DNA from: Escherichia coli
GTDB taxonomy: Bacteria; Pseudomonadota; Gammaproteobacteria; Enterobacterales; Enterobacteriaceae
NCBI RefSeq assembly: GCF_002854065.1
Contig: NZ_CP024147.1
DNA: 64,000 bases
Direction: 5' to 3' (one strand)
Part shown: piece by piece, positions 5,527-44,007 of the stretch
How the letters are laid out: each line of letters begins with the position of its first letter
How positions within the stretch are numbered: position 1 is the stretch's first letter
Notes under the pieces: model-generated
What the model saw: only the letters and a program-made list of their open reading frames with translations
The model's database searches: none
What the model was told of the DNA's origin: nothing
Made by a program: the position numbers and the translations under genes

Positions 5527-7340
<1,814 letters not shown>

Positions 7341-26121: not shown

Positions 26122-27339
26122 ATGAGTAGCGTAGATATTCTGGTCCCTGACCTGCCTGAATCCGTAGCCGATGCCACCGTCGCAACCTGGCATAAAAAAC
26201 CCGGCGACGCAGTCGTACGTGATGAAGTGCTGGTAGAAATCGAAACTGACAAAGTGGTACTGGAAGTACCGGCATCAGCAGACGGCATTCTGGATGCGGT
26301 TCTGGAAGATGAAGGTACAACGGTAACGTCTCGTCAGATCCTTGGTCGCCTGCGTGAAGGCAACAGCGCCGGTAAAGAAACCAGCGCCAAATCTGAAGAG
26401 AAAGCGTCCACTCCGGCGCAACGCCAGCAGGCGTCTCTGGAAGAGCAAAACAACGATGCGTTAAGCCCGGCGATCCGTCGCCTGCTGGCTGAACACAACC
26501 TCGACGCCAGCGCCATTAAAGGCACCGGTGTGGGTGGTCGTCTGACTCGTGAAGATGTGGAAAAACATCTGGCGAAAGCCCCGGCGAAAGAGTCTGCTCC
26601 GGCAGCGACTGCTTCGGCAGCGCAACCGGCTCTGGCTGCACGTAGTGAAAAACGTGTCCCGATGACTCGCCTGCGTAAGCGTGTGGCAGAGCGTCTGCTG
26701 GAAGCGAAAAACTCCACCGCCATGCTGACCACGTTCAACGAAGTCAACATGAAGCCGATTATGGATCTGCGTAAGCAGTACGGTGAAGCGTTTGAAAAAC
26801 GCCACGGCATCCGTCTGGGCTTTATGTCCTTCTACGTGAAAGCGGTGGTTGAAGCCCTGAAACGTTACCCGGAAGTGAATGCTTCTATCGACGGCGATGA
26901 CGTGGTTTACCACAACTATTTCGACGTCAGCATGGCGGTTTCTACGCCGCGCGGCCTGGTGACGCCGGTTCTGCGTGATGTCGATACCCTCGGCATGGCA
27001 GACATCGAGAAGAAAATCAAAGAGCTGGCAGTCAAAGGCCGTGATGGCAAGCTGACGGTTGAAGATCTGACCGGTGGTAACTTCACCATCACCAACGGTG
27101 GTGTGTTCGGTTCCCTGATGTCTACGCCGATCATCAACCCGCCGCAGAGCGCAATTCTGGGTATGCACGCTATCAAAGATCGTCCGATGGCGGTGAATGG
27201 TCAGGTTGAGATCCTGCCGATGATGTACCTGGCGCTGTCCTACGATCACCGTCTGATCGATGGTCGCGAATCCGTGGGCTTCCTGGTAACGATCAAAGAG
27301 TTGCTGGAAGATCCGACGCGTCTGCTGCTGGACGTGTAG
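26122..27339 (+). CDS. sucB: Dihydrolipoyllysine-residue succinyltransferase E2 component
   Basis: 405-aa ORF with lipoyl domain ([11 protein letters not shown]) and Ala/Pro-rich linker. Confidence 0.97.
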
Positions 27340-27344
27340 TAGTT

Positions 27345-27545
27345 TAAGTTTCACCTGCACTGTAGACCGGATAAGACATTATCGCCTTCTCCGGCAATTG
27401 AAGCCTGATGCGACGCTGAACGCGTCTTATCAGGCCTACGGGAAGCACCGATGTAGGTCGGATAAGGCGCTCGCGCCGCATCCGACAAGCGATGCCAGAT
27501 GCGACGCTTGCGCGTCTTATCAGGCCTACGGGTGACCGACAATAC
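27345..27545. repeat. REP/BIME elements between sucB and sucC
   Basis: Multiple copies of the gcctgatgcgacgc / gtaggcctgataagacgcg palindromic unit. Confidence 0.8.
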
Positions 27546-27614
27546 CCGGGAGCGATACGAAATATTCGGTCTACGGTTTAAAAGATAACGATTACTGAAG
27601 GATGGACAGAACAC

Positions 27615-28781
27615 ATGAACTTACATGAATATCAGGCAAAACAACTTTTTGCCCGCTATGGCTTACCAGCACCGGTGGGTTATGCCTGTACTACTCCGCG
27701 CGAAGCAGAAGAAGCCGCTTCAAAAATCGGTGCCGGTCCGTGGGTAGTGAAATGTCAGGTTCACGCTGGTGGCCGCGGTAAAGCGGGCGGTGTGAAAGTT
27801 GTAAACAGTAAAGAAGACATCCGTGCTTTTGCAGAAAACTGGCTGGGCAAGCGTCTGGTAACGTATCAAACAGATGCCAATGGCCAACCGGTTAACCAGA
27901 TTCTGGTTGAAGCGGCGACCGATATCGCTAAAGAGCTGTATCTCGGTGCCGTTGTTGACCGTAGTTCACGTCGCGTGGTCTTTATGGCCTCCACCGAAGG
28001 CGGCGTGGAAATCGAAAAAGTGGCGGAAGAAACTCCGCACCTGATCCATAAAGTTGCGCTTGATCCGCTGACTGGCCCGATGCCGTATCAAGGACGCGAG
28101 CTGGCGTTCAAACTGGGTCTGGAAGGTAAACTGGTTCAGCAGTTCACCAAAATCTTCATGGGCCTGGCGACCATTTTCCTGGAGCGCGACCTGGCGCTGA
28201 TCGAAATCAACCCGCTGGTTATTACCAAACAGGGCGATCTGGTCTGCCTCGACGGCAAACTGGGCGCTGATGGCAACGCACTGTTCCGCCAGCCTGATCT
28301 GCGCGAAATGCGCGACCAGTCGCAGGAAGATCCGCGTGAAGCACAGGCTGCACAGTGGGAACTGAACTACGTTGCGCTGGACGGTAACATCGGTTGTATG
28401 GTTAACGGCGCAGGTCTGGCGATGGGTACGATGGACATCGTTAAACTGCACGGCGGAGAACCGGCTAACTTCCTGGACGTTGGCGGCGGCGCAACCAAAG
28501 AACGTGTAACCGAAGCGTTCAAAATCATCCTCTCTGACGACAAAGTGAAAGCCGTTCTGGTTAACATCTTCGGCGGTATCGTTCGTTGCGATCTGATCGC
28601 TGACGGTATCATCGGCGCGGTAGCGGAAGTGGGTGTTAACGTACCGGTCGTGGTACGTCTGGAAGGTAACAACGCCGAACTCGGCGCGAAGAAACTGGCT
28701 GACAGCGGCCTGAATATTATTGCAGCAAAAGGTCTGACGGATGCAGCTCAGCAGGTTGTTGCCGCAGTGGAGGGGAAATAA
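27615..28781 (+). CDS. sucC: Succinyl-CoA synthetase beta subunit
   Basis: 388-aa ORF; N-terminus [18 protein letters not shown] (ATP-grasp). Confidence 0.97.
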
Positions 28782-29650
28782 TGTCCATTTTAATTGATAA
28801 AAACACCAAGGTTATCTGCCAGGGCTTTACCGGTAGCCAGGGGACTTTCCACTCTGAACAGGCCATTGCATACGGCACCAAAATGGTTGGTGGCGTAACT
28901 CCAGGTAAAGGCGGTACTACCCACCTCGGCCTGCCGGTGTTCAACACCGTGCGTGAAGCTGTTGCTGCTACTGGCGCTACCGCTTCTGTTATCTACGTAC
29001 CAGCACCGTTCTGCAAAGACTCCATTCTGGAAGCCATCGACGCAGGCATCAAACTGATTATCACCATCACTGAAGGCATCCCGACGCTGGATATGCTGAC
29101 CGTGAAAGTGAAGCTGGATGAAGCAGGCGTTCGTATGATCGGCCCGAACTGCCCAGGCGTTATCACTCCGGGTGAATGCAAAATCGGTATCCAGCCTGGT
29201 CACATTCACAAACCGGGTAAAGTGGGTATCGTTTCCCGTTCCGGTACACTGACCTATGAAGCGGTTAAACAGACCACGGATTACGGTTTCGGTCAGTCGA
29301 CCTGTGTCGGTATCGGCGGTGACCCGATCCCTGGCTCTAACTTTATCGACATTCTCGAAATGTTCGAAAAAGATCCGCAGACCGAAGCGATCGTGATGAT
29401 CGGTGAGATCGGCGGTAGCGCTGAAGAAGAAGCAGCTGCGTACATCAAAGAGCACGTTACCAAGCCAGTTGTGGGTTACATCGCTGGTGTGACTGCGCCG
29501 AAAGGCAAACGTATGGGCCACGCGGGTGCCATCATTGCCGGTGGGAAAGGGACTGCGGATGAGAAATTCGCTGCTCTGGAAGCCGCAGGCGTGAAAACCG
29601 TTCGCAGCCTGGCGGATATCGGTGAAGCACTGAAAACTGTTCTGAAATAA
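28781..29650 (+). CDS. sucD: Succinyl-CoA synthetase alpha subunit
   Basis: 289-aa ORF; N-terminus [45 protein letters not shown]. Confidence 0.97.
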
Positions 29651-29750
29651 ATATCTGTAATAAGAAATAGCCCTCGCCGCTTCCCTCTACAGGAATGGCG
29701 AAGGGCTGTCGGTTTCGACATGGTTGGCCATCGTATGATGGCCTTTTTTA
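29651..29750 (+). ncRNA. sdhX: Candidate SdhX (RybD)-type 3'UTR-derived sRNA ending at the sucD terminator
   Basis: Sequence shows two hairpins after the sucD stop, the second (ggccatcgtatgatggcc + T-run) a rho-independent terminator; SdhX is known to derive from the sucD 3'UTR in E. coli; the sRNA sequence itself is not verified from memory. Confidence 0.45.
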
Positions 29751-30316
29751 TGCCTTAAACGGTTAACCACGGTCGAAATCTGACTGCAGGCTTGACTGCA
29801 TGACCACAGCCACTGTGGATTGCCGCAACCGACCGCAAGCCACGAATAAGAACGACGGCGAATTTCGAATCGTTACCTGATGCACTGGCTTCCCAGCGTT
29901 TGACCGTAGCGTTAAGTAAATCAACAAAAGCGATGTTCACCGCTTTTCGTCAAGTCGTGCCATTTGTCAGCCAGGATCGGGTCTTTACCCCGGATATTGC
30001 AGCATCGCAAAAATTCTTAGAGGGATATGCTATAAATCAAAAATAAAATCTTTGTTGATTGTTTATCATAATATCCACAGATATGATAAATGATATCAAT
30101 TTAATAATTTTCACTTAATGTGATTCCGGATAATTCGAAAGGCGCTGTGCTTTTCGGATTATTATTATCTGATTAAGATATTTGTCACGCCAGGCTTACT
30201 GGTTTATAAATGTCAATCATGATTCTTATAAATTATTTATTGCTGCTTTGGTTACCATTACTTCGTAATAAGTAATGTATTTTTGATTGTTTAAACTATT
30301 TTTAAGGGACGGCATT

Positions 30317-30418
30317 ATGCGAGGGAAAATACCTAAAACGGAACTGCTGGTGACTTTTGAGGTCGTCGCACGTCATGAAAGTTATACCAGAGCGGCAGAG
30401 GAGTTAGCGTTAACCCGG
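30317..30418 (+). pseudogene. LysR-type transcriptional regulator, N-terminal 34 codons only, truncated by IS1
   Basis: MRGKIPKTELLVTFEVVARHESYTRAAEELALTR resembles the LysR winged-HTH start; the reading frame runs into the IS1 terminus and stops on IS1 sequence. Confidence 0.6.
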
Positions 30419-30431
30419 TAATGACTCCAAC

Positions 30432-30935
30432 TTATTGATAGTGTTTTATGTTCAGATAATGCCCGATGACTTTGTCATGCAGCTCCACCGATTTTGAGAA
30501 CGACAGCGACTTCCGTCCCAGCCGTGCCAGGTGCTGCCTCAGATTCAGGTTATGCCGCTCAATTCGCTGCGTATATCGCTTGCTGATTACGTGCAGCTTT
30601 CCCTTCAGGCGGGATTCATACAGCGGCCAGCCATCCGTCATCCATATCACCACGTCAAAGGGTGACAGCAGGCTCATAAGACGCCCCAGCGTCGCCATAG
30701 TGCGTTCACCGAATACGTGCGCAACAACCGTCTTCCGGAGCCTGTCATACGCGTAAAACAGCCAGCGCTGGCGCGATTTAGCCCCGACGTATCCCCACTG
30801 TTCGTCCATTTCCGCGCAGACGATGACGTCACTGCCCGGCTGTATGCGCGAGGTTACCGACTGCGGCCTGAGTTTTTTAAATGGCGGAAAATCGTGTTGA
30901 GGCCAACGCCCATAATGCGGGCGGTTGCCCGGCAT
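30432..30935 (-). CDS. insB: IS1 InsB (C-terminal transposase domain, expressed as InsAB' by -1 frameshift)
   Basis: 167-aa ORF …[47 protein letters not shown]… matches IS1 InsB. Confidence 0.95.
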
Positions 30936-31129
30936 CCAACGCCATTCATGGCCATATCAATGATTTTCTGGTGCGTACCGGGTTGAGAAGCGGTGTAAGT
31001 GAACTGCAGTTGCCATGTTTTACGGCAGTGAGAGCAGAGATAGCGCTGATGTCCGGCAGTGCTTTTGCCGTTACGCACCACCCCGTCAGTAGCTGAACAG
31101 GAGGGACAGCTGATAGAAACAGAAGCCAC
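30854..31129 (-). CDS. insA: IS1 InsA (transposition inhibitor / N-terminal part of the InsAB' transposase)
   Basis: 91-aa [46 protein letters not shown]… matches IS1 InsA. Confidence 0.95.
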
Positions 31130-31184
31130 TGGAGCACCTCAAAAACACCATCATACACTAAATCAGTAAGTTGGCAGCATCACC

Positions 31185-31655
31185 CACCACGATTTGCAAA
31201 ATTTCATTGTGCGCCATGGCATCGACAATGCTGGTGGGGAAAGCATGCGAAATAAATACTTTTAGCGTAAAGGGTTCTGCCGCGACCACTCCGGTGGTTT
31301 CGGCACCGTGTGCAACAAAATTAATTCCTGTACCTGGCATGAAGAAATTTACCGTTATCAAGCCTAAGGCAATTGACAGCAATGAGGCGCAAATAAATAA
31401 AAAGAGTGTTTTAGAAAAAATACGACCAAGGGCTTTGGCATCGCCCATTTTAGCAATACCTACCACCAGGGTAGAGACCACTAACGGAGCGATAATCATT
31501 TTTATCAGTCGTAAGAAAATCGTCGTGAATATCGATATTTCTTGCGCATAGAGTTTTGCGGTTTCCGGTGAAGCAGTGTTATTGAGCACTACGCCGATAA
31601 TCATTCCAAGTACCAGCGCCAAAAGAATCATCGTGGTTAAACTTATTTTCTTCAT
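31185..31655 (-). pseudogene. Glutamate/dicarboxylate:cation symporter (DAACS family, GltP/DctA-like), N-terminal ~157 codons, 3'-truncated by IS1
   Basis: IFLRLIKMIIAPLVVSTLVVGIAKMGDAKALGRIFSKTL… aligns with the GltP N-terminal region; GGAGG RBS before ATG at 31655; the ORF continues into IS1, where it terminates. Confidence 0.8.
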
Positions 31656-31815
31656 TTTTTCCTCCATCAGGTGCACGGCGATAAATCAGAATCAGGAGAA
31701 GTAGATGCCTGAATAGAGATTCAGGCATCTACCTGCTATTACAACCTTACAAATAGCTGAAGTGTTGAACTGCAATAAGTGACGGGATGTCAGTTGGCTA
31801 AAAGTATTCGGATTT

Positions 31816-32133
31816 TTACAAATCGAAACTCATATTTAATAAAGGTGCATGTTGCTGTGCACCATAGACATCATTGTCACCTACATTCCCGGAGATAATA
31901 TCTCGTGGCATGACGATTTTTACTGCGTTAGAAGGATCAAACCAGACAATACGATGAATAAAGTCAGGTTCAACATGATATAAGCGCGCAATCAGTTCTG
32001 GGGTTAATTGCCCTGATGATTTAACTCGCTCATAGTTTTCTTTCGTTTTAAATAAAATATCTAAAACCAGTTCGTAAGGTCCGGCATTTTTCGAACGAAT
32101 GACTTGCGCCAGTGAGACAATTGACTGTTTCAT
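31816..32133 (-). CDS. DUF4387-family protein (105 aa), function unknown
   Basis: Small ORF translationally coupled (ATGA overlap) to the upstream DUF1446 gene; family assignment is from memory of the AtuA-partner family. Confidence 0.6.
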   Translation of the reverse strand: MKQSIVSLAQVIRSKNAGPYELVLDILFKTKENYERVKSSGQLTPELIARLYHVEPDFIHRIVWFDPSNAVKIVMPRDIISGNVGDNDVYGAQQHAPLLNMSFDL

Positions 32134-33500
32134 GCCTGAACTCCTTCTGGCGTCACCTGTTCAATATGGAAATCAAAACGCAGAGCGTCGTTGGCTTCAA
32201 TCAGGTGATATATGGAAAATTCGTATACCGGCCCGCCCTGGATATCAGAAGGGGAGAACGGGAACGCCAGGTTGCCTGCGGTAGCGATGCGGTTTTCATA
32301 GCCGTAGTGCAGCATGGTAGAGCGCACCAGCGAGCAAACGCTATTGGCAATTTCCTGGGTCGGTGCAACTACATCAAGGACAATCCCCAGCTCATGCCCG
32401 GCAGTTTGCATCGGTTCATGGTCGCCCATCACCCCGTTTTTACCGTACAGGTGGAAAATGATGCGAATGCTGTCATCGTCTAACGACAGGTTACGCGAAA
32501 CGCTGGTTTTGACTTCATCGATGATTTTATCGATCCCGGCGATCATGATCGGGTCGCGCGTTCCGGCGATGGTCAGACAGCGGAAGCCCACCCGTCGCGC
32601 ACCTTCCAGTTTCAGGGCATACGGCGTTTCTTCATGCTTAGAACCGCTGACGTACACTTCGCCGTCATTGACTGCTTTAAATGTGCAGCCTTTCAGGTTC
32701 AACACGCCGCCAGGTCCTGGCAGGAAGTAGGGATCGGATTTCTCATACAGTGTGTGTGCAGCTGCTGACGTTTCGGTAAATTTACGCTTCGGATTAAATG
32801 TCTTCAGCGTAAAGCCGTTGTCATCAATGATGCCCATCGCACAGTCAGAGCCTGAGCCGGGCGTTGCGGCGATTGCTGCGCACTCAAGGATTTTCCCACA
32901 ATGCAGCGCCAGACCTTCATCAAAGCCTTGCATGATCGGTAGCGCAGCAAAGCAGGCCGGGTCGTAAGCGCGCCCACCCAGCACCACTTGCGCGCCTTCT
33001 TTCAGCGCCCGCTGGAAGGGTTCGATGCCCATTTGCGCGACGATATACGTACTTTCGTCAATCGCGTCGTGGGTTAACGGCGGGACAAAATCCAGCGCCG
33101 TGATTTTGCCGTTATCCAGCGCCTGGTGGACGATGGCTTTGTCAACGTCTGCCGGGATCAACGCCATCGAGAACGAGAGGTGCTCTTCCTGGGCAATCTC
33201 ATGAATTATTTCTCGGCACCACTCCAGGTGTGGTGCGGCACCAGAACCGCCAGCCGTTCCGATCACCACCGGTATATTATTTTGCACGCCTGCGGTGATC
33301 ATATAGCGCAGATCGCGCTTGACCCCTGCGCGATCGGTAAACGGTTTGCCTGCCCCGAGGTAGTGGGGGCCTGGATCGGAAGAGCCTGCATCAACGGCGA
33401 TCAGATCGGGCGATTCTGCCATCGCTTTACGGAAGCTCTCTTCCGGGAATCCATACCCGAGGATTGCCGTTGGCGATAAGACTTTAAAAGAACGAGCCAT
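32130..33500 (-). CDS. DUF1446 / AtuA-like protein (456 aa), function unknown
   Basis: ORF immediately downstream of the methylaspartase gene (3-nt gap); AtuA-like assignment from sequence recollection, not a search. Confidence 0.6.
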   Translation of the reverse strand: MARSFKVLSPTAILGYGFPEESFRKAMAESPDLIAVDAGSSDPGPHYLGAGKPFTDRAGVKRDLRYMITAGVQNNIPVVIGTAGGSGAAPHLEWCREIIHEIAQEEHLSFSMALIPADVDKAIVHQALDNGKITALDFVPPLTHDAIDESTYIVAQMGIEPFQRALKEGAQVVLGGRAYDPACFAALPIMQGFDEGLALHCGKILECAAIAATPGSGSDCAMGIIDDNGFTLKTFNPKRKFTETSAAAHTLYEKSDPYFLPGPGGVLNLKGCTFKAVNDGEVYVSGSKHEETPYALKLEGARRVGFRCLTIAGTRDPIMIAGIDKIIDEVKTSVSRNLSLDDDSIRIIFHLYGKNGVMGDHEPMQTAGHELGIVLDVVAPTQEIANSVCSLVRSTMLHYGYENRIATAGNLAFPFSPSDIQGGPVYEFSIYHLIEANDALRFDFHIEQVTPEGVQA

Positions 33501-33503
33501 TTG

Positions 33504-34745
33504 TTAATCCTTAGCCTGCAACAGCGCGATAGTACGATTCATTTCGTTGAAGACGATATCGAGGCCTTCGTCAAAACCCATCCCTGGTTTTACCAGCATA
33601 CGCATAGGGCGAGCGGCAAGGGCGACGTGGACACAGGTGCGGGCACTAACATCAGTTTCATTGCAGGTGCCGCCCTGGTACGCTTCCATGCTGTGGCTGT
33701 TGCAGTAAAGAACCGCATCGACGATGTTGTGAATACTTCCAAGATCCGGGGTTTTGATTTGCACCATGTGACAACTGGCGGCATCAGTGAAATCAACAAT
33801 ATCCTGGTAGGTGTTACACCATTCATCGGCCACAATTTTCACGCCGGAACCGAGGCGCGTCAGCTCTTTGGTAATCGCGGTCAGCAGGCGAATTTGGTCG
33901 GGCTTGTTACCGGCATCGACCGGCCCTTCAATGTAGAGCGGCAGGCCTTGCGCTTCTTTTTCCAGGCTGGCGATGTATTGCGCACAGCGAAGCGGATCCA
34001 TATCGAAGATCAGACCGATAGTGCCGTATACATCGATGTGCAGGGTAGGGTGGTAGCGTGCGCTGGTGCGCTTGCTCAGAATGCGATCCGACAGCCAGCG
34101 GACATATTCGCGCAGTTTTTCACCTTTAAAGCCCAGCTTCTCTTCGACGTTATTAATCAGCGCATGGGGCAGCACGTCGATGCCCTTAAGGATCATCTTA
34201 TCGACGGCGATATATCGATCGTCGCCGCTCTGGCCAAATAATGGAATGGATTCCGCCACGTGTGGCAACTGCCATTCATCACAGACCACTTCAGTTTTCA
34301 GACGGCCGGTTGCCAGCGCAGTAGCATCAAGCAGCGCCTGTGATAATCCGTAGCGCACGGCGGTATGCAGCAAGTTGCCGTCAATACGCAGTTTGTCGAA
34401 GAAACGGGCATTCGGCAGGAAAGCATCCACATCGCGGCCTACCAGTAATGGCTTGATATGGTCGTTGAGGAACGGAATAAAGTGCTCTGCGAGGAACAGT
34501 GGATCGCGACCACCTGCCCCGGAATACTGTACGGCAGCACAGTCACCTACAGCGACCGCGCCGTTTTCCAGAATCAACTGTACCGATACGCACTCCCCGG
34601 CCTGACGAACGGCGTTAAACCCCTGTGTTACCGGCTCCCCGGTATAAAAAAAGCCGTCATGACCCGCTCCGTTTTTTATCGCCTGCTGGTCATCGAAATA
34701 GAATGAGGAGTAGCCAGCGGTGAACAGAGCCTGTTTTATTTTCAT
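33504..34745 (-). CDS. mal: 3-methylaspartate ammonia-lyase (methylaspartase, enolase superfamily)
   Basis: 413-aa ORF; strong similarity to clostridial methylaspartase as I remember it (…FYFDDQ.AIK.GAGHDGF.YTG…CAAVQYSGAGGRDPLFLA…HMVQIKTPDLG…). Confidence 0.9.
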   Translation of the reverse strand: MKIKQALFTAGYSSFYFDDQQAIKNGAGHDGFFYTGEPVTQGFNAVRQAGECVSVQLILENGAVAVGDCAAVQYSGAGGRDPLFLAEHFIPFLNDHIKPLLVGRDVDAFLPNARFFDKLRIDGNLLHTAVRYGLSQALLDATALATGRLKTEVVCDEWQLPHVAESIPLFGQSGDDRYIAVDKMILKGIDVLPHALINNVEEKLGFKGEKLREYVRWLSDRILSKRTSARYHPTLHIDVYGTIGLIFDMDPLRCAQYIASLEKEAQGLPLYIEGPVDAGNKPDQIRLLTAITKELTRLGSGVKIVADEWCNTYQDIVDFTDAASCHMVQIKTPDLGSIHNIVDAVLYCNSHSMEAYQGGTCNETDVSARTCVHVALAARPMRMLVKPGMGFDEGLDIVFNEMNRTIALLQAKD

Positions 34746-36190
34746 TATGGTCTTTCTATTAATTTACTGTGGGATACAGCATTGATGTCATCTACAACCA
34801 TCTGGAATGTCGGTTGGCGTCCTTCAAAGCGTGCGCGTTCCGCGACGTAATCGTGGTGGAGGTCGAGAATATCTTTTGGCAATGGAACGGCTCCGGCTTC
34901 CAGTACGCGTATCGCGCCGGTGTTGTCACGGACCGGAAGAATATTGCCCGCGTTGCAGGCGGCTGGCGCAAACGGCACATCCAGTACGCCCGCTTCAAAT
35001 GCCAGCACCGTACCGCGCGCAATATCACCATTACCCAGTTCGAACACTTTATTCAGTACCGCGCGAACCTCGCTCTTAATCAGTTCAATTTCCAGTTCAA
35101 CCGCAGGGCACGGCGGGAATTTCTGCTCATTGACCATGTTGAGCATCTGGCGGGAGGCTTTCAGCCCCTGAATGTTGGCAGCGGCAGTCGGGATACCCCA
35201 GGCTTCGTGCGGACTTTTGGTGATGACTTTGGTGGCACCAGACATCCCCGCGACGGCTGCGCCCCAGGAGATAATAGCGAACGCTTTCGATTCGTCTTCC
35301 GGAAAGCCGCCCATCCACTGGTGAAACACGGTACTCAATTCATAGTCGGTATAGCCATAGCTCTGAAAGTATTCGTGTGCAAGTTCACGCAGAGACTGGA
35401 TCGCCGCAACATCCTGCGTCAGGCTGCCGACCTGGCCATAACCAACGGTGATAGATTTCACACCCTGTTCCAGTGCCAGCAAGCCTTCGATTATCGCGAT
35501 AGAGTGCGAGATAAACGGCGGGATCAGCGTACCCGTTAGTGGGCCAAACGGTTCGCGGTTGATGCGGATCCCGTGTTCTTCATACATCCCCATTAAACGG
35601 TCGCAGTACTGCCAGTCGCGGATCGATTTTTCCAGCGTTACGCGTTTGGCATACGGAATGTTGTAGGAAATGCCACCGCCTTCATAACTGGTAAAGCCGC
35701 TGGCCATTGAGATTTCAGCCAGCAGACGCGCATCTGGCGTGCCGTGGCGGATCTGTAGCGGTTTTTGCAGGGTTTCGGTGAGGCGACGGCAAGCTGCGAC
35801 ACCATGGTTAACTACCGGTAAACCGTTCAGTTTAGAGGTTCCGGCTTCGATGGATTTTTTAATCCCTACAGCCGCTTCTTCGTACCGATTCAGACGGGTA
35901 TATGCATCGATGGTGCTTGGCAGCAGATCGCACTCTTCTTGTAGTGTTTTCAGCAGTTCGATGTGTTCGTCCATCAGCGCCACACCTGCGCGCGGTTGGC
36001 TAAGGGTTTTACCTTCCTTGTCTGCTTTCAGCAGCGCAAGAGAGAAGCGTTTATGCTCAGGGATGGTTTGTTGGTATTTAACGCCATCTTCAAAGATTTC
36101 AACATCCTTGCCGGTTTCCCAGGTTTTCAGTACCTGTTGCCGCTCGGTCATGAATTCGTCATGGGTTAATTTCTTATTTCGAAGTTCCAT
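34745..36190 (-). CDS. glmE: Glutamate mutase E subunit (methylaspartate mutase epsilon chain)
   Basis: 481-aa ORF, 1-nt stop/start overlap with mal; size and position match GlmE/MutE. Confidence 0.85.
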   Translation of the reverse strand: MELRNKKLTHDEFMTERQQVLKTWETGKDVEIFEDGVKYQQTIPEHKRFSLALLKADKEGKTLSQPRAGVALMDEHIELLKTLQEECDLLPSTIDAYTRLNRYEEAAVGIKKSIEAGTSKLNGLPVVNHGVAACRRLTETLQKPLQIRHGTPDARLLAEISMASGFTSYEGGGISYNIPYAKRVTLEKSIRDWQYCDRLMGMYEEHGIRINREPFGPLTGTLIPPFISHSIAIIEGLLALEQGVKSITVGYGQVGSLTQDVAAIQSLRELAHEYFQSYGYTDYELSTVFHQWMGGFPEDESKAFAIISWGAAVAGMSGATKVITKSPHEAWGIPTAAANIQGLKASRQMLNMVNEQKFPPCPAVELEIELIKSEVRAVLNKVFELGNGDIARGTVLAFEAGVLDVPFAPAACNAGNILPVRDNTGAIRVLEAGAVPLPKDILDLHHDYVAERARFEGRQPTFQMVVDDINAVSHSKLIERP

Positions 36191-36208
36191 TGATTGCAGC
36201 CTTAATTG

Positions 36209-37597
36209 TTATAGGGTTAAGCATTGAATACTGGTGCGCGCGGCGGCCAGCGGATCGACTCTGGCGACGTTTGCCAGCAGTGGTAATAGCCCCCGGGAAT
36301 CGCGGTAATATTCAAATTCGGTCGGTAAGAGAATGCGTTTACCGTCGTCGTTTAACTCGCGGTATTTCAACCAGTGATGCATATCGAACTGACTGGCACG
36401 CGAGAGCCATCCGCCGGATCCGACGACTTTACGCACGGTTGTCAGGTCACGTCCCATCTGTAAATCGACATTGCCGACGCAGGTGCAGACCTCTTTTTTG
36501 GTGCCCGCATGTCTTTCGGTGGCATAACCCACACACAGTCCGGCCAGGACGGTATCGAAATATTTCTCTTCTGCATTTGCGGGTAAGTAGTCGGGATGAG
36601 CGACTAGATGACGGAGGTAATGATAAAAAGCGTCCAGCTGTGCGGGTTGCTGAGCAAAATTCACATTGACTAACTCTTTCGCACTTTCACCAACCACCAC
36701 TGCCGAGACGCGCATTCCCAGATCGCCTTCCACCGTCCGTTTTACGAAGGGTTCCGGTACGCCGTGTAAAACGGTGTCGGGCGAGAGCGTGTTGGCACAG
36801 GCGGAATAAACATCGGTGGTTGCGCCGCCCATGTCGATCAGCATGAACTCTTTCCAGCTGTGATCGACGTTACTGATTGCCTTGACCAGTTCAAAGACCG
36901 TCCATGGTGTCGGCATTGGTTCTTCGCCTGTTTTATCAACAATGACATCCAGCCCTTTCCCTTTAACGATGCGTTTAAGGAATATGTCGCAAATAGCCTG
37001 GCGTGCGGCTAAAGGGTTCGGATGGTCAAGATCGGGCAGAACATTGTCGACGATGGTCAGGTCTTTATGCCCGAGGATCTCCTGCACCTCGTCCTGAATA
37101 TCCCGGTTTCCGGCATAAATAATGGCGCAGTCGAGTTTGGATTCTGCCAGCACACGGGCGTTATTCAGTCCGTAGCTTTCTTCTCCGCCGTCGGTGCCGC
37201 CGGTGAACAAGAGAATATCGGGCTGCGTTTCTTCCAGTGCCTGGATATCACGGCGGTTCAGCTTGTAGGCGTAATATTGCGCAATTTTAGCACCCGCAGA
37301 GTGAGCGGTTACTTTCGCGGTTTCCAGGGTGATAGAAGGCACCAATCCCATTGCGGCAACCGCCAGCCCACCTTTGGCAGAGGAGGAATACTTCAATGCA
37401 ACCTCACCGCTGTTTAACAGGGGGAGGGCATTATCTACGTTTAACACCTGGTTCAGGCTGGAGAAAAACCCCTTCGCCAGATGATGGGTGGTGGTTGGGG
37501 TCAGTACGTGGTTAACCAACGTTAACGCGTCCCCCTCCCGGGTGAAGAGGGCTGCTTTGGTCCACGTCGATCCAATATCGACAGAGACGATTTGCAT
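36209..37597 (-). CDS. glmL: Glutamate mutase-associated protein GlmL/MutL (ASKHA-fold ATPase-like)
   Basis: 462-aa ORF between glmS and glmE, as in clostridial glutamate mutase operons. Confidence 0.8.
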   Translation of the reverse strand: MQIVSVDIGSTWTKAALFTREGDALTLVNHVLTPTTTHHLAKGFFSSLNQVLNVDNALPLLNSGEVALKYSSSAKGGLAVAAMGLVPSITLETAKVTAHSAGAKIAQYYAYKLNRRDIQALEETQPDILLFTGGTDGGEESYGLNNARVLAESKLDCAIIYAGNRDIQDEVQEILGHKDLTIVDNVLPDLDHPNPLAARQAICDIFLKRIVKGKGLDVIVDKTGEEPMPTPWTVFELVKAISNVDHSWKEFMLIDMGGATTDVYSACANTLSPDTVLHGVPEPFVKRTVEGDLGMRVSAVVVGESAKELVNVNFAQQPAQLDAFYHYLRHLVAHPDYLPANAEEKYFDTVLAGLCVGYATERHAGTKKEVCTCVGNVDLQMGRDLTTVRKVVGSGGWLSRASQFDMHHWLKYRELNDDGKRILLPTEFEYYRDSRGLLPLLANVARVDPLAAARTSIQCLTL

Positions 37598-38046
37598 CAG
37601 ATAGCCTCTTCAAGAATACGAGTATCAACGTCATGACGTTGGTTGATATCGTGGGCCATCAGCTGACAAACATCTTCTAAGTCATGACTTGGGGCAAAGA
37701 CGCGATCAAATCCCATCTCTTTGAATTTGGTTTCCACGTCAGCGAAGTCATGTTTTCCGACCACCAGGTTACCGCCCACATAGAGCAGGATGTCCCCCAG
37801 TCCACGCTCGATGCAGCGTTCGCGCATGCCCAGACAGTCGATATCGCCATGCCCATAGATAGAGGAGACGACAATCGCGTCAGCGCCAGTTTCAATGGCC
37901 GCATCAATATATTCGTCCTGGCTGACCATTACGCCCAGATTAATGACTCTGAAGTCGTGGTTGCTAAAAACGCGGTCCAGAACTTTATTGCCTACTGCAT
38001 GGCAGTCCGCGCCAATAACGCCAATCACAAGTGTTGCTTTCTTCAT
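37597..38046 (-). CDS. glmS: Glutamate mutase S subunit (B12-binding sigma chain)
   Basis: About 149 aa from [24 protein letters not shown]…; cobalamin-binding DxHxxG motif (ADCHAVG); TGATG overlap with glmL. Confidence 0.9.
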
Positions 38047-38592
38047 GGGTAATCCTTTGTAAGACAGAGAGTAAAATAAGTTACACACGTCGTATTTATG
38101 GCCGTTCATAACGGCACAGGTTTAATATCACAGGAGTGTCTTTATCTGACCGTAATGTTGCAATTGATCTATTTTCAAAATGTCTTTCGGGAAATGATTG
38201 TTTAAAGTGTGTTTTTAAATTCCCATGTTAATTCAGTATGTTATGTCAACTAATGTCATGAATGTTAAATTTTTAAAATTAACTTGATTTAATGTATTGA
38301 GATAATTGTGATCTACTTCTAATTTGCATTTTAGTGATATGGGTTTAGCCATGAGTAAATGCATTTCATAAAATTTAAGTCGAATTTCACTGCAATTCAT
38401 CTCTGCTTAATGTAAAAATAATGTTGAAAATAACAAATGGTTAATGATTCATGCGAATTATGACGTTAGTTAGCTCTTTTGATTTTTCGTAAAAAAGAGA
38501 GGTACATGAAGGTGCTACCAGTATGAGTAACGTTAATCAAAGGTTTTATTACGTCTGGCAATAACGCAGGCCATTTTCGCGACTGGGTGGAT

Positions 38593-39015
38593 TTAATCAG
38601 TATAATCCTCATACAATATTTCAGGATTAACTGAACCGTTAACCGGGTTTTGGTGTTGAAATTTAGAAATGGCGGAGTCAATCAATGAAGACAGTATCGA
38701 AAAAATAACTGTGTCAGAACTAATTTCAATTAATCCTTCTCGTTGTTGACCAAAAAAGATATTTATCTTGATTTCATTTGTACTACGGCAATCAATATGT
38801 AGTAATTTTTGATCGCTGAGATTTTCTGTTTCATAAATGTTTTTGGCGATAGTCGGATGTATTGATGCCAGACATCTGCTCAGATAAGCCAGATCCTTTA
38901 GGGAACACCCCGCTGAGTAGAGGATGTCAGAGAATTTTTGTGTGTCAACTGTTGTCTCTGAAGCGTATGTTGCATTGACAGGAAGGGTGTTGAAAGAGAT
39001 TTGAGATGGGATCAT
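38593..39015 (-). CDS. Hypothetical acidic protein (140 aa) in AT-rich segment
   Basis: ORF in a strongly AT-rich region; no recognisable motif. Confidence 0.5.
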   Translation of the reverse strand: MIPSQISFNTLPVNATYASETTVDTQKFSDILYSAGCSLKDLAYLSRCLASIHPTIAKNIYETENLSDQKLLHIDCRSTNEIKINIFFGQQREGLIEISSDTVIFSILSSLIDSAISKFQHQNPVNGSVNPEILYEDYTD

Positions 39016-39096
39016 TATTTAAATCTTTCCGTGAGTAATAAAAATTAATCCCCAGGCATTGTTTAACAATATTTGCCATAGGGGATATATAGAAAA

Positions 39097-40041
39097 TTAA
39101 AGTATTTTATTGGCTTCGGTTAACTGATCTATAACCAGTGCCAGATTGGTAAACATTTTGAAAAAGCGATACTGGCTCGGAATATCTCTTTCAAAGACGA
39201 AACATTCAAGGTCATTGTTTGAAAAATAAAGGACTAGTGTTGCTGATTCGTCAGGGAAAACATGGAAATGTATCTGGTTACCAGAAGGAGGATAGTCCAG
39301 AAGAAGGGTATCTTTGCCCGTCACATACCTGTTGTTGTCGTGGACGCTACGCTCACACTTCATCAGAGGTGTCAGGATACTCATGTATTCATCTGATGTT
39401 AATTTATTAAAATCATCATTCATTTTAAAGAAACGATAAAGTAACAGTACATCCTCTTGCGTAACCGGTTCGTTTGTTTTTAGAGGGAAATAAGCGGGAA
39501 CCAGAAGATGAGGTTCTAATCTATTTTGTTGAGCGCTATAACTGAATTTGAACATAAATTCCGGATCGCTCATCAATTGAGCGACATAATTATGCCTGGC
39601 TTCGAAAATTTTAATTTTTATCAGGTTAAATAAGTCTGTTTCGTCATCCTGTATTAAAAGACATTGGCCATAGCAGCCAGGCTTTTTTTCATTATAAGCA
39701 GAAACGGTTATTCTGTCAGAGGTGTCAACGTTATATTCAAAAGCCAGATAGTGACCTTCTTCATCGCGATTTGTTTCCAGGTTATTTAAATTCATCACAT
39801 GAAGTGTTTGCAATGCTGATTCAATGAGCTGTTGACTCTCTGAGGTAAATGTTTCGCGCTGCGTTGTATAAAGTGTATCAATTCCAACGACTATCCGATG
39901 TGGGTCAAGGATGGCGGCAATCATCTTTATTACCTGCACAGTCACGGGTGATGTCATTGATTCTTTATCTGTTTTTAGAGAATCATTAGATGGCCAACCT
40001 GAGAAGCGATTGACAGCCGAACCGATATTATCAGGACTCAT
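39097..40041 (-). CDS. Hypothetical protein (314 aa) in AT-rich segment
   Basis: ORF with Ser/Asn/Pro-rich N-terminus, no transmembrane segments, no recognisable catalytic motif; co-directional with the 140-aa ORF. Confidence 0.55.
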   Translation of the reverse strand: MSPDNIGSAVNRFSGWPSNDSLKTDKESMTSPVTVQVIKMIAAILDPHRIVVGIDTLYTTQRETFTSESQQLIESALQTLHVMNLNNLETNRDEEGHYLAFEYNVDTSDRITVSAYNEKKPGCYGQCLLIQDDETDLFNLIKIKIFEARHNYVAQLMSDPEFMFKFSYSAQQNRLEPHLLVPAYFPLKTNEPVTQEDVLLLYRFFKMNDDFNKLTSDEYMSILTPLMKCERSVHDNNRYVTGKDTLLLDYPPSGNQIHFHVFPDESATLVLYFSNNDLECFVFERDIPSQYRFFKMFTNLALVIDQLTEANKIL

Positions 40042-40547
40042 AGCAGCAACCTCATTGTAATCAAGCGAGGCGCTGAGCGTACTCGGCTATAGAAAAACTA
40101 ACTTGCAAAAATCGCTCATTTTTCATTTATCAGGCGAAAGTGGTCTCTGTACACTCAGAAACAATCACTCCCGCTAAGTCATACCTGTTTCATCGATACA
40201 TTTAAGTGATTATTACTAATGAAACAATAACATAACGGGCTTACGGTCGGTGCTCATAAAGGCAACAATCAATTAACTTTGATAAAAATATGTTATGTAA
40301 AATAGCAACAAATTGGCTACTCTAATCAATTGGTATTATAAAAAGTGGATAAGGCGGTTCTGTTAAATAAAATACTGGTTTTTTATCTATACCTTTTCAT
40401 TGTAATAATTGTGTTGCATAAATATTTCACAATAAATTAACAATAAAATCACCAATGATCTATGGTTTATACATAATTAACATATTTGGTTGGTTTTGAT
40501 ATAAATCAATTTTTAATTCTTGAAAAAAATCTGCAAAACACGATAAA

Positions 40548-40561
40548 TTGTCGTAGATCAA
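40548..40561. promoter_or_regulatory. Putative FNR/CRP-family site in the cydA upstream region
   Basis: ttgtcgtagatcaa matches TTGAT-N4-ATCAA with one mismatch; cydAB is known to be FNR/ArcA-regulated. Confidence 0.3.
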
Positions 40562-40846
40562 ATTGATGAGATCGTGACAATTTCGCTATAAATTGATCAC
40601 TGTCGAAAAATGCAAATTTGCTCAATAAAAACCTGTTTATTGTAAGGATTTTGCGGCGTAATATAATTACGGGATCAATTTGGTTTATTCATTAACATAT
40701 TTGTAACTTTTTTATCATTGTCTTTTCCTCTTTTGATGAAATGGCAACGATAGGGGCGAGCAAATAATTTTGTATTGGGGCATGCGTGTGACCCTTTCTA
40801 ACGGGGTTCACTCTCGGAGTCTTCATGCGATGAGCAAGGAGTCATG

Positions 40847-42415
40847 ATGTTAGATATAGTCGAACTGTCGCGCTTACAGTTTGCCTTGACCGCGATGTAC
40901 CACTTCCTTTTTGTGCCACTGACGCTCGGTATGGCGTTCCTGCTGGCCATTATGGAAACGGTCTACGTCCTTTCCGGCAAACAGATTTATAAAGATATGA
41001 CCAAGTTCTGGGGCAAGTTGTTTGGTATCAACTTCGCTCTGGGTGTGGCTACCGGTCTGACCATGGAGTTCCAGTTCGGGACTAACTGGTCTTACTATTC
41101 CCACTATGTAGGGGATATCTTCGGTGCGCCGCTGGCAATCGAAGGTCTGATGGCCTTCTTCCTCGAATCCACCTTTGTAGGTCTGTTCTTCTTCGGTTGG
41201 GATCGTCTGGGTAAAGTTCAGCATATGTGTGTCACCTGGCTGGTGGCGCTCGGTTCAAACCTGTCCGCGCTGTGGATTCTGGTTGCAAACGGCTGGATGC
41301 AAAACCCAATCGCGTCCGATTTCAACTTTGAAACTATGCGTATGGAGATGGTGAGCTTCTCCGAGCTGGTGCTTAACCCGGTTGCTCAGGTGAAATTCGT
41401 TCACACTGTAGCGTCTGGTTATGTGACTGGCGCGATGTTCATCCTCGGTATCAGCGCATGGTATATGCTGAAAGGTCGTGACTTCGCCTTCGCTAAACGC
41501 TCCTTTGCTATCGCTGCCAGCTTCGGTATGGCTGCCGTTCTGTCTGTTATTGTTCTGGGTGATGAATCCGGCTACGAAATGGGCGACGTGCAGAAAACCA
41601 AACTGGCTGCTATTGAAGCTGAGTGGGAAACGCAACCTGCGCCTGCTGCCTTTACTCTGTTCGGCATTCCTGATCAGGAAGAGGAGACGAACAAATTTGC
41701 GATCCAGATCCCTTACGCGCTGGGCATCATTGCAACGCGTTCCGTGGATACTCCAGTTATCGGCCTGAAAGAACTGATGGTGCAGCATGAAGAACGCATT
41801 CGTAACGGGATGAAGGCGTACTCTCTGCTCGAGCAACTGCGTTCTGGTTCTACCGACCAGGCGGTTCGTGACCAGTTCAACAGCATGAAGAAAGACCTCG
41901 GTTACGGTCTGCTGCTGAAACGCTATACGCCAAACGTGGCTGATGCGACTGAAGCGCAGATTCAACAGGCAACCAAAGACTCCATTCCGCGTGTAGCGCC
42001 GCTGTACTTCGCGTTCCGTATCATGGTGGCGTGTGGCTTCCTGCTGCTGGCAATCATCGCGCTCTCTTTCTGGAGTGTCATCCGCAACCGCATTGGCGAG
42101 AAAAAATGGCTCCTGCGCGCCGCGCTGTACGGTATTCCGCTGCCGTGGATTGCTGTAGAAGCGGGCTGGTTCGTGGCTGAATATGGCCGCCAACCGTGGG
42201 CTATCGGTGAAGTGCTGCCGACAGCTGTGGCGAACTCGTCACTGACCGCAGGCGATCTCATCTTCTCAATGGTGCTGATTTGCGGCCTGTATACCCTGTT
42301 CCTGGTGGCAGAATTGTTCTTAATGTTCAAGTTTGCACGCCTCGGCCCAAGCAGCCTGAAAACCGGTCGCTATCACTTTGAGCAGTCTTCCACGACTACT
42401 CAGCCGGCACGCTAA
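40847..42415 (+). CDS. cydA: Cytochrome bd-I ubiquinol oxidase subunit I
   Basis: 522 aa from [28 protein letters not shown]. Confidence 0.97.
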
Positions 42416-42430
42416 GACAGGAGTCGTCAA

Positions 42431-43570
42431 ATGATCGATTATGAAGTATTGCGTTTTATCTGGTGGCTGCTGGTTGGCGTTCTGCTGATTGGTTTTGCAG
42501 TCACTGACGGTTTCGACATGGGGGTGGGCATGCTCACCCGTTTCCTCGGTCGTAACGACACCGAGCGTCGAATTATGATTAACTCCATCGCACCACACTG
42601 GGACGGTAACCAGGTTTGGCTGATCACCGCAGGCGGCGCACTGTTTGCTGCCTGGCCGATGGTCTATGCCGCTGCGTTTTCCGGCTTCTATGTGGCGATG
42701 ATCCTCGTGCTGGCGTCTTTGTTCTTCCGTCCGGTCGGTTTTGACTACCGCTCCAAGATTGAAGAAACCCGCTGGCGTAACATGTGGGACTGGGGCATCT
42801 TCATTGGTAGCTTCGTTCCGCCGCTGGTGATTGGTGTAGCGTTCGGTAACCTGTTGCAGGGCGTACCGTTCAACGTTGATGAATATCTGCGTCTGTACTA
42901 CACCGGTAACTTCTTCCAGTTGCTTAACCCGTTCGGCCTGCTGGCAGGCGTGGTGAGCGTAGGGATGATCATTACTCAGGGCGCGACTTATCTGCAGATG
43001 CGTACCGTGGGCGAACTGCACCTGCGTACCCGTGCAACGGCTCAGGTGGCGGCACTGGTGACACTGGTCTGCTTCGCACTAGCTGGCGTATGGGTGATGT
43101 ACGGTATCGATGGTTATGTCGTGAAATCGACAATGGACCATTACGCAGCCTCTAACCCGCTGAATAAAGAAGTGGTTCGTGAAGCTGGCGCATGGCTGGT
43201 TAACTTCAACAACACGCCAATTCTGTGGGCTATTCCGGCACTGGGTGTGGTTCTGCCGCTGCTGACCATCCTGACTGCACGTATGGATAAAGCCGCGTGG
43301 GCGTTTGTGTTCTCCTCCCTGACGCTGGCCTGCATCATCCTGACTGCCGGTATCGCAATGTTCCCGTTTGTGATGCCGTCCAGCACCATGATGAACGCAA
43401 GTCTGACAATGTGGGATGCAACTTCCAGCCAGCTGACACTTAACGTCATGACTTGGGTTGCGGTGGTTCTGGTACCGATCATTCTGCTCTACACCGCCTG
43501 GTGTTACTGGAAAATGTTCGGTCGTATCACCAAAGAAGATATTGAACGTAACACCCACTCTCTGTACTAA
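42431..43570 (+). CDS. cydB: Cytochrome bd-I ubiquinol oxidase subunit II
   Basis: 379-aa hydrophobic ORF immediately after cydA. Confidence 0.97.
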   Translation: MIDYEVLRFIWWLLVGVLLIGFAVTDGFDMGVGMLTRFLGRNDTERRIMINSIAPHWDGNQVWLITAGGALFAAWPMVYAAAFSGFYVAMILVLASLFFRPVGFDYRSKIEETRWRNMWDWGIFIGSFVPPLVIGVAFGNLLQGVPFNVDEYLRLYYTGNFFQLLNPFGLLAGVVSVGMIITQGATYLQMRTVGELHLRTRATAQVAALVTLVCFALAGVWVMYGIDGYVVKSTMDHYAASNPLNKEVVREAGAWLVNFNNTPILWAIPALGVVLPLLTILTARMDKAAWAFVFSSLTLACIILTAGIAMFPFVMPSSTMMNASLTMWDATSSQLTLNVMTWVAVVLVPIILLYTAWCYWKMFGRITKEDIERNTHSLY

Positions 43571-43584
43571 GTAAGGAGCTAAAA

Positions 43585-43698
43585 ATGTGGTATTTCGCAT
43601 GGATTCTGGGAACGCTTCTTGCCTGTTCGTTTGGGGTAATCACCGCGCTGGCGCTTGAGCACGTCGAATCAGGCAAAGCCGGTCAAGAAGACATCTGA
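43585..43698 (+). CDS. cydX: Cytochrome bd-I small subunit CydX (37 aa)
   Basis: Short ORF MWYFAWILGTLLACSFGVITALALEHVESGKAGQEDI with RBS aaggag; not in the ORF track because under 60 aa. Confidence 0.9.
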   Translation: MWYFAWILGTLLACSFGVITALALEHVESGKAGQEDI

Positions 43699-43991
43699 TG
43701 AGTAAGATTATCGCAACCTTGTATGCGGTAATGGACAAGCGCCCCCTGCGGGCGCTTTCCTTCGTGATGGCGCTTCTGTTAGCAGGATGTATGTTTTGGG
43801 ACCCATCTCGTTTTGCCGCGAAGACCAGTGAACTGGAAATCTGGCATGGTTTATTGCTGATGTGGGCCGTCTGTGCTGGTGTGATTCACGGCGTGGGCTT
43901 TCGTCCGCAGAAGGTTCTTTGGCAAGGGATTTTTTGCCCATTGCTTGCCGATATTGTTCTCATTGTCGGGCTGATTTTCTTCTTCTTTTAA
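43698..43991 (+). CDS. ybgE: Inner membrane protein YbgE
   Basis: 97-aa hydrophobic ORF overlapping the cydX stop. Confidence 0.85.
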   Translation: MSKIIATLYAVMDKRPLRALSFVMALLLAGCMFWDPSRFAAKTSELEIWHGLLLMWAVCAGVIHGVGFRPQKVLWQGIFCPLLADIVLIVGLIFFFF

Positions 43992-44007
43992 ATCAGAATT
44001 CTCTTTA

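Follow-up and report, generated by a model that had tools for sequence, protein, structure and literature searches.

An old methylaspartate pathway gene cluster, recently degraded by an IS1-bounded deletion, very probably occupies the sucD-cydA interval of an Escherichia coli strain

What occupies the interval between sucD and cydA in an Escherichia coli strain in which the mngR, mngA and mngB genes found there in K-12 are missing, and whether that content is a recent arrival, are the questions addressed here for a stretch of 64,000 nucleotides from E. coli contig NZ_CP024147.1 (RefSeq assembly GCF_002854065.1). This whole 64-kb stretch is referred to as the window, and coordinates are positions in it unless a comparison locus (L number) is named. 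A reading made from the sequence alone (the sequence-only reading) had described the content as a strain-specific insertion of about 10.5 kb, built up in at least two acquisition events. The comparisons below indicate that the block is very probably an enterobacterial methylaspartate (mesaconate) pathway cluster, an old accessory occupant of the locus that was degraded recently, and that the strain- or lineage-specific part is a loss, an IS1-bounded deletion of 4,021 bp.

The open reading frame (ORF) listing placed sucD at 28781-29650 and cydA at 40844-42415, both on the plus strand; the listing and the base composition revealed about 11.2 kb between them, with genes on the minus strand and three AT-rich stretches. 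A BLAST search with positions 27001-44000 against the MG1655 locus (L003), used as the K-12 reference, returned matches at 27511-29753 and 40471-43000 only. Homology to K-12 ended at 29753 and restarted at 40471, 373 bp upstream of cydA, with none in between, leaving a non-K-12 block of 10,717 bp (29754-40470), slightly larger than first estimated, opposite 5,932 bp of mngRAB in K-12. The claim that different content replaces mngRAB was thus confirmed, and searches with K-12 mngR, mngA and mngB against the window (blastn and tblastn) gave nothing but a stray 64-nt match at 5553-5616. The left boundary had been placed at the sucD/SdhX terminator near 29750, and correctly: five aligned alleles were the same up to the end of the terminator T-run at 29749 and fully divergent from 29754. 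The shared core on this side is the sucD 3' untranslated region (UTR) with its intrinsic terminator (29651-29753, plus strand), the position of SdhX in K-12. An Rfam scan of 29000-41500 gave no family at gathering thresholds, SdhX included, and the support for SdhX is therefore identity to the K-12 3' UTR only. The right boundary, assigned by the sequence-only reading to the AT-rich region upstream of cydA but judged impossible to place by eye, does lie there and could be fixed at 40470/40471 relative to K-12, and at 40205/40206 relative to an allele carrying a gene for a TPR protein (the TPR allele) and to sister Escherichia species. Beyond it, the cydA upstream regulatory region (40471-40843, plus strand) is common to all alleles and genera.

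The core of the block is a series of minus-strand genes. In order of transcription these are glmS (37597-38046), encoding the B12-binding subunit S of glutamate mutase and matching the NCBIfam equivalogs NF002612 and TIGR01501 with scores far above their curated cut-offs; glmL (mutL; 36209-37597), encoding the mutase accessory/reactivating protein (equivalog NF040745, 510 bits at a cut-off of 475); glmE (34745-36190), encoding subunit E of glutamate (methylaspartate) mutase (equivalog TIGR01503, 862 bits, cut-off 390); and mal (33504-34745), encoding methylaspartate ammonia-lyase (MAL; equivalog TIGR01502, 544 bits, cut-off 286), which directly follows glmE and lies next to the mutase genes. 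The start of glmS was taken as that of the annotated 149-aa form, as in O145 RM9467 (L001) and CUWW06 (L088); the glmS and glmE ORFs are intact and the same as the annotated CUWW06 coding sequences. Next come two overlapping tandem ORFs, also on the minus strand, that the sequence-only reading had listed as a pair of DUF proteins. The first (32130-33500; Pfam AtuA, AtuA/DUF1446 family) encodes a polypeptide that aligned over 456 of 456 residues with PDB 9ERQ_A, 'Citramalate lyase, subunit A (cmlA)', at 92.5% identity (E = 5e-293). The second (31816-32133; Pfam DUF4387, E = 3e-39) aligned over its full length, residues 1-104, with PDB 9ERQ_B/9EVF, 'Citramalate lyase, subunit B (cmlB)' (E = 5e-57). 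On this similarity the 'DUF4387/AtuA' pair is assigned as citramalate lyase CmlAB, with cmlA encoding the large and cmlB the small subunit, and it should carry that annotation in E. coli genomes. The remaining listed components, a LysR fragment, IS1, a symporter fragment and an AT-rich gene pair, were also present at or close to the positions given for them.

In strains with an intact cluster (CUWW06, O157:H7 and others) the minus-strand operon reads glmS-glmL-glmE-mal-cmlA-cmlB-symporter-fumD-cobO, with a convergent LysR regulator, and in the intact annotated loci of O145 RM9467 and CUWW06 two hypothetical genes lie beyond glmS on the minus strand. The fumD gene of intact E. coli loci is annotated as class I fumarate hydratase. 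The cluster has been described as a glutamate fermentation gene cluster by Kronen & Berg (2015; PMC4682846), who reported its genes in 26.5% of E. coli and 90.6% of O157:H7 and identified FumD, the additional fumarase of the cluster, as a mesaconase whose gene was co-localised with the cluster 'in all these cases'; the citramalate-cleaving enzyme was not found in that study. This gap is now closed by CmlAB, which converts citramalate to pyruvate and acetate, with endogenous FumA converting mesaconate (bioRxiv 10.64898/2026.01.16.699985). In the literature the pathway is enzymatically complete, consisting of GlmSE with GlmL, MAL, FumD and CmlAB.

By the established biochemistry of these enzyme families, glutamate would be converted to (2S,3S)-3-methylaspartate by the adenosylcobalamin (AdoCbl)-dependent mutase GlmSE, reactivated by GlmL; MAL would convert methylaspartate to mesaconate and NH3; FumD would hydrate mesaconate to (S)-citramalate; and CmlAB would cleave citramalate to pyruvate and acetate. 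The enzymes of the first, second and fourth steps are encoded intact in the window, and that of the third step has been lost.

The distribution of the cluster bears directly on whether it is an insertion in this strain. Among 5,426 complete E. coli genomes the glm/mal core was present in 1,135 (about 21%), the AT-rich two-gene module to its right in 1,134 (at a coverage of at least 80%), mngRAB in 3,887 and the TPR-protein gene in 1,114; given this last number, at least 710 genomes must hold both the TPR gene and mngRAB. Arrangements at the locus include mngRAB in K-12, the TPR gene alone in strain Q5 (L004 2391-3533) and mngRAB followed by the TPR gene in E. coli O25b:H4 ST131 (L090 2859-9708). 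Because mngRAB coexists with the TPR gene in ST131, the sucD-cydA locus is modular, a textbook variable region between two core operons. In a scan of one genome per species, cydA and/or sucD flanked the cluster in many Citrobacter, in Klebsiella grimontii, K. oxytoca, K. michiganensis and K. spallanzanii, in Pseudescherichia vulneris, in Salmonella enterica subsp. arizonae and diarizonae, and in E. whittamii and further Escherichia species; Yersinia, Hafnia and Morganella carried it at other sites. The island genes shared 77-84% nucleotide identity with those of Salmonella, Citrobacter and Klebsiella, and sucD and cydA 86-89%. The island has thus diverged no less deeply than sucD and cydA, and there has been no recent transfer between genera. 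No tRNA gene was detected in 27000-44000 and no integrase among the window ORFs, and a search for direct or inverted repeats at the island ends yielded short matches at chance level only. The block is not a classical mobile or integrase-type genomic island; on these comparisons it is best read as having long been one of the alternative occupants of this modular variable locus, with repeated loss or replacement.

The competing account, in which two or more recent horizontal acquisitions displaced mngRAB in this strain, draws on content wholly unlike that of K-12, on a mosaic GC content (29-38% in three AT-rich stretches versus 53% in the glm core), on the presence of IS1 and on the patchy occurrence within E. 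coli noted above. It is nevertheless very improbable. The 1,135 carriers span many lineages, at least five other genera have it at the same site and differ in it as deeply as in core genes, the GC content of the glm core resembles the backbone, and integrase, tRNA and att repeats are missing. The description as strain-specific was therefore wrong, the system having been published in 2015. Of the proposed multiple acquisitions, one part stands, in that the AT-rich module of about 1.75 kb is a separate insertion; it is the only insertion-like part, however, and is common to about 1,134 genomes. The IS1 element marks a deletion and not the arrival of the island, which the sister strain CUWW06 carries whole and with identical sequence.

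Aligned with O145 RM9467, the window was collinear except that IS1 stood in place of L001 2918-6938 (4,021 bp). To the left of the element remain 33 of 301 codons of the LysR-type transcriptional regulator (LTTR), a 5' fragment at 30317-30416 on the plus strand that matches L001 2818-2917 collinearly until IS1 interrupts it at 30417. To its right remain 157 of 426 codons of a GltP-like dicarboxylate/amino acid:cation symporter, an N-terminal fragment at 31185-31655 on the minus strand (NCBIfam GltP/DctA N-terminal match; collinear with L001 6939-7409), whose ORF continues into IS1 to a stop at 31158. The 768-bp element itself (30417-31184, minus strand) has the canonical ends GGTAATGACTCC...GGCAGCATCACC, an NCBIfam IS1 transposase match (E = 6e-42) and intact insA and insB reading frames, and is the sole IS1 copy in the window. 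Lost were LysR from codon 34, the whole of cobO (adenosyltransferase), the whole of fumD (mesaconase) and 269 of the 426 symporter codons; all of these genes are still present in the sister CUWW06, 100% identical elsewhere, and the absence of FumD is a secondary loss. No 9-bp target duplication was found at the window IS1, and because the flanking 9-mers CGTTAACCC and CACCACGAT differ, the element is not a simple insertion. The deletion would have arisen either by IS1-mediated adjacent deletion, a classical and frequent event, or by recombination between two IS1 copies, origins that are not separable by sequence alone.

CUWW06 was identical to the window at every shared base over about 15 kb, with 0 mismatches, yet contains the full island, which makes the deletion very recent; it is in fact so recent that the intactness of the remaining genes is uninformative on selection. 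The IS1 of CUWW06, 99.2% identical to the window copy, lies at another site (window 30072-30080) and has a 9-bp duplication, TATCCACAG. The IS1 copies of CUWW06 and of strain 2018-05-2CC were rejected as precursors of the window IS1 because they occupy different sites and that of CUWW06 has its own target duplication. A Shigella origin, suspected from IS1, was likewise rejected, the window being 100% identical to E. coli CUWW06.

The pair of IS1 junctions seen in the window occurred in 0 of the 5,426 complete E. coli genomes. The exact 165-aa chimeric symporter-IS1 product recurred in at least four independent sequencing runs, and a 4.64-Mb contig carries it too; at least the right IS1 junction is real and circulating. 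If the genome had one IS1 copy in LysR and a second, direct copy in the symporter, with the segment between them present, and the assembly had collapsed the two, exactly these junctions without a target duplication would result; short-read contigs stop inside IS1 and fit either case, and the two junctions do not occur together on a single IS1 in any complete RefSeq genome. Such an artefact can nonetheless be given very little credence, as the contig with the chimeric gene is chromosome-scale and presumably a long-read assembly, an independent strain, EC2641, carries in its closed chromosome a similar deletion of the same four genes, also bounded by IS1, and adjacent deletions by IS1 are, as noted, frequent.

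The deleted segment was kept in 1,127 carriers of the glm core and was missing from about 8 of 1,135. In other strains IS1 lies within LysR, upstream of LysR (as in strain MEW) or in fumD, and across E. coli at least five island sites have been hit, comprising LysR, the region upstream of LysR (twice), fumD, and two different deletions that IS1 bounds. In some RefSeq genomes mal, glmL, cmlA and the gene of a 140-aa protein (described below) carry frameshift flags, and some of these flags may be sequencing errors. The recurrent IS1 hits and the flags are consistent with relaxed selection acting on this cluster in E. coli. Whether the loss of LysR, cobO, fumD and the symporter was instead an adaptive remodelling, in which GlmSE, MAL and CmlAB were kept and redundant or costly functions or a repressor were shed, was also considered. 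Two independent lineages, the window strain and EC2641, lost the same four genes by different IS1-bounded deletions, a housekeeping back-up would exist for each enzymatic or transport function that was lost, and every retained gene is intact. We regard this explanation as unlikely, given how few carriers are without the segment, the many other island sites struck by IS1 and the frameshift flags that other strains show in mal, glmL and cmlA, which fit relaxed selection on the whole cluster; moreover, with 0 single-nucleotide differences from CUWW06, the loss is too recent for intactness to inform.

Decay of an old cluster, the reading preferred here, would have the following course. For adenosylation and glutamate uptake E. 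coli has housekeeping equivalents, BtuR and GltP/GltS, respectively. The LysR regulator would be without a back-up; most LTTRs of catabolic operons are activators, and if this one is an activator too, the remaining genes would be silent and heading to decay. Most likely, the genes that are still intact can no longer be induced and will decay in time. The missing mesaconase step could be supplied by FumA or FumB, whose catalytic efficiency on mesaconate is about 10% of that for fumarate (PMC4682846). The strain represents a natural deletion of fumD, cobO, the transporter and the LTTR beside an isogenic intact sister, CUWW06, and the pair could be used to test the back-up of the mesaconase step by FumA/FumB and the role of LysR.

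Several points weigh against this interpretation. The island genes are only 86-91% identical to those of sister Escherichia (L010, L011 and L071), whereas the flanks are 96-97% identical; the E. coli copy of the island may therefore not be strictly vertical and coalesces deeper than the surrounding core genome. Replacement between lineages by homologous recombination via the conserved flanks would look the same as ancestral presence, which is deduced from synteny and divergence only. Either allele may be the derived one. The phenotype given for the strain is a prediction. The intact cluster of O157:H7 was itself not induced under any condition tried (PMC4682846), and LysR is accordingly no more than a putative activator. 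Finally, the short-read contigs confirm the right IS1 junction only and not the absence of the 4-kb segment there.

Within the block, later layers would have been added on the Escherichia side, namely an AT-rich insertion to the right of glmS and an rtcB-family gene at the left end that is now a remnant. The insertion (38453-40205, minus strand, 38% GC, about 1.75 kb) is restricted to Escherichia, and its left edge lies between 38344 and 38453: E. whittamii (L071) aligns to 38452 and again from 40201, with 321 bp between, and Escherichia sp. E1V33 (L010) aligns to 38343 and again from 40206. Clusters that are syntenic in other respects, in E. whittamii, in Escherichia sp. E1V33 and in all other genera, do not have the module, which is therefore a separate insertion. 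It contains two orphan genes on the minus strand, one encoding a 140-aa acidic protein of isoelectric point (pI) 4.7 (38593-39015), with homologues in E. coli and Shigella only, and one encoding a 314-aa acidic protein of pI 4.8 (39097-40041), which fell into five clusters in 5.8 billion proteins. Both are confined to E. coli and Shigella, except that one cryptic Escherichia clade has a decayed copy. In the locus of Escherichia sp. MOD1-EC7003, of a cryptic clade (L011 4860-5830), the 314-aa gene is fragmented by two copies of a short repeated element, which looks like the insertion of a small interspersed repeat (translation ...HTSSCMC.DCVRSP.SL.YVSS.GF..LP.SCNSNYL.Y.).

An exhaustive HMMER search with the 314-aa protein against 1.84 billion representatives returned same-family fragments only, and comparison of both proteins with PADLOC, PHROGs, NCBIfam, Pfam and PDB gave nothing usable (best E = 0.045-0.3, chance level). 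Profile-profile comparison revealed no relationship between the two. AlphaFold2 models built from shallow alignments had predicted local distance difference test (pLDDT) scores of 47 (314-aa protein) and 40 (140-aa protein) and were unusable for a fold search, and literature searches with the O157 locus tags of the orphans gave nothing, nor did one for mngA in combination with methylaspartate. Measured against a divergent allele of 91% identity, the ratio of nonsynonymous to synonymous substitution rates (dN/dS) was 0.31 for the 140-aa gene and 0.35 for the 314-aa gene versus 0.03 for glmS. These ratios indicate that the orphans are real, fast-evolving genes under weak purifying selection, and they were probably acquired by horizontal transfer. 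A speculative and improbable idea is that the two are more than hitch-hiking cargo and constitute a new functional module, connected with the glutamate/B12 pathway or with the control of cydAB and having a fold and function that no current family represents. In its favour are their position, with the conserved glm block on one side and the control region of cydA on the other, their nearly one-to-one co-occurrence with the glm cluster (1,134 versus 1,135 genomes), and their retention at full length down to 64% identity with dN/dS of about 0.3. The two genes are flagged here as widespread in E. coli, real and uncharacterised.

Between this module and cydA lies a further AT-rich segment (40206-40470, 27% GC), common to the TPR allele and sister Escherichia species and absent from K-12. 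The cydA upstream region together with the 5' end of the gene (40471-41200) was about 89% identical to K-12 and 93-94% identical to the TPR-allele strain and sister Escherichia species, with the TTGATATAAATCAAT box kept. The cydAB control region is therefore linked to the module upstream of cydA, and the alleles may differ in function.

Upstream of glmS, a 21-nt block, TTTTGAAAATAGATCAATTGC (38160-38180, minus strand, 114-134 nt upstream of the gene), was near-invariant in E. coli, E. whittamii, Citrobacter, Salmonella arizonae, Klebsiella and Pseudescherichia, in the midst of intergenic sequence that could not be aligned, and is a candidate operator or promoter element of the glm operon. The 10-mer TGATTGTTTA occurs 3 times in the window versus 0.17 expected, each time in a promoter region of the island, at 30056 and 30284 (upstream of LysR) and at 38195 (upstream of glmS); because other genera do not conserve it exactly, it was dropped as an operator in favour of the adjacent 21-nt block. 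An inverted repeat with perfect 14-nt arms and a loop of 4 nt (GTAGATGCCTGAAT ... ATTCAGGCATCTAC) is present in the spacer between cmlB and the symporter (31701-31732) and could be an internal terminator, an attenuator or a binding site.

At the left end, positions 29754-29990 (minus strand, 51% GC) hold the remnant of a decayed RtcB-family (RNA ligase-like) gene, identified by blastn to the 3' part of the RtcB gene of E200086 (L007 979-2376); tblastn recovered RtcB residues 375-398 and 451-462 at 29761-29851. Among the loci examined this gene is intact (465 aa) only in E200086, where it adjoins the glm cluster; syntenic clusters in other genera do not contain it. The AT-rich region upstream of LysR that follows (29991-30316, 29% GC) is an IS1 target in sister strains. 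Outside the block, the spacer between sucB (odhB) and sucC (27340-27614) measures 275 bp and contains two units of about 82-90 nt resembling repetitive extragenic palindromic (REP) elements (GCCTGATGCGACGCT...); in O145 RM9467 the spacer is 94 bp, an indel polymorphism of about 196 bp within the suc operon.

Taken together, the system is one already known, and the novelty at the strain level is an ordinary IS1 deletion. The import beyond annotation is small, the gain being the exact boundaries of the block and its sub-modules. Compared with known systems, the block shares with K-12 mngR-mngA-mngB the interval from the sucD terminator to the cydA upstream region and has no sequence or protein similarity to those genes. 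The state of its IS1 matches a classical IS1 adjacent deletion or IS1 x IS1 recombination, with a full 768-bp element that has intact ends, flanking sequence lost on one or both sides and no target duplication. Its closest counterpart is the glutamate fermentation (methylaspartate pathway) cluster of O157:H7, which lies at the same site, has glmS, mutL/glmL, glmE, mal and the DUF1446 gene in the same order, and is 98-99% identical at the nucleotide level. Unlike the cluster of Kronen & Berg, that of the window is without fumD, cobA/cobO, most of the gltP-like transporter and most of the LTTR; these were removed by the IS1-bounded deletion, and the window is therefore a degraded exception to that cluster. 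CmlAB of Raoultella planticola (PDB 9ERQ/9EVF) has the same two-gene arrangement directly downstream of mal; activity has been reported for the Raoultella enzyme, and the window pair is its predicted orthologue by sequence and gene context. The mutS-mutL-mutE-mal operon of Clostridium tetanomorphum and C. tetani shares the first two enzymes and the pathway logic with the window cluster, but the clostridial clusters have a two-subunit mesaconase, MesAB, and a CitDEF-type lyase where the enterobacterial ones have single-chain FumD and the unrelated CmlAB. In loci of Acidobacteria, Aminicenantes and Halanaerobiales, CmlAB follows mal. Clusters of the Desulfosporosinus and Acididesulfobacillus type are without CmlAB; there mal is followed by a double-cubane-cluster-like protein and an acyl-CoA dehydratase activase (L079 12161-14090, L081 11281-13269), after which comes a two-subunit mesaconase. 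This variety points to alternative solutions downstream of methylaspartase.

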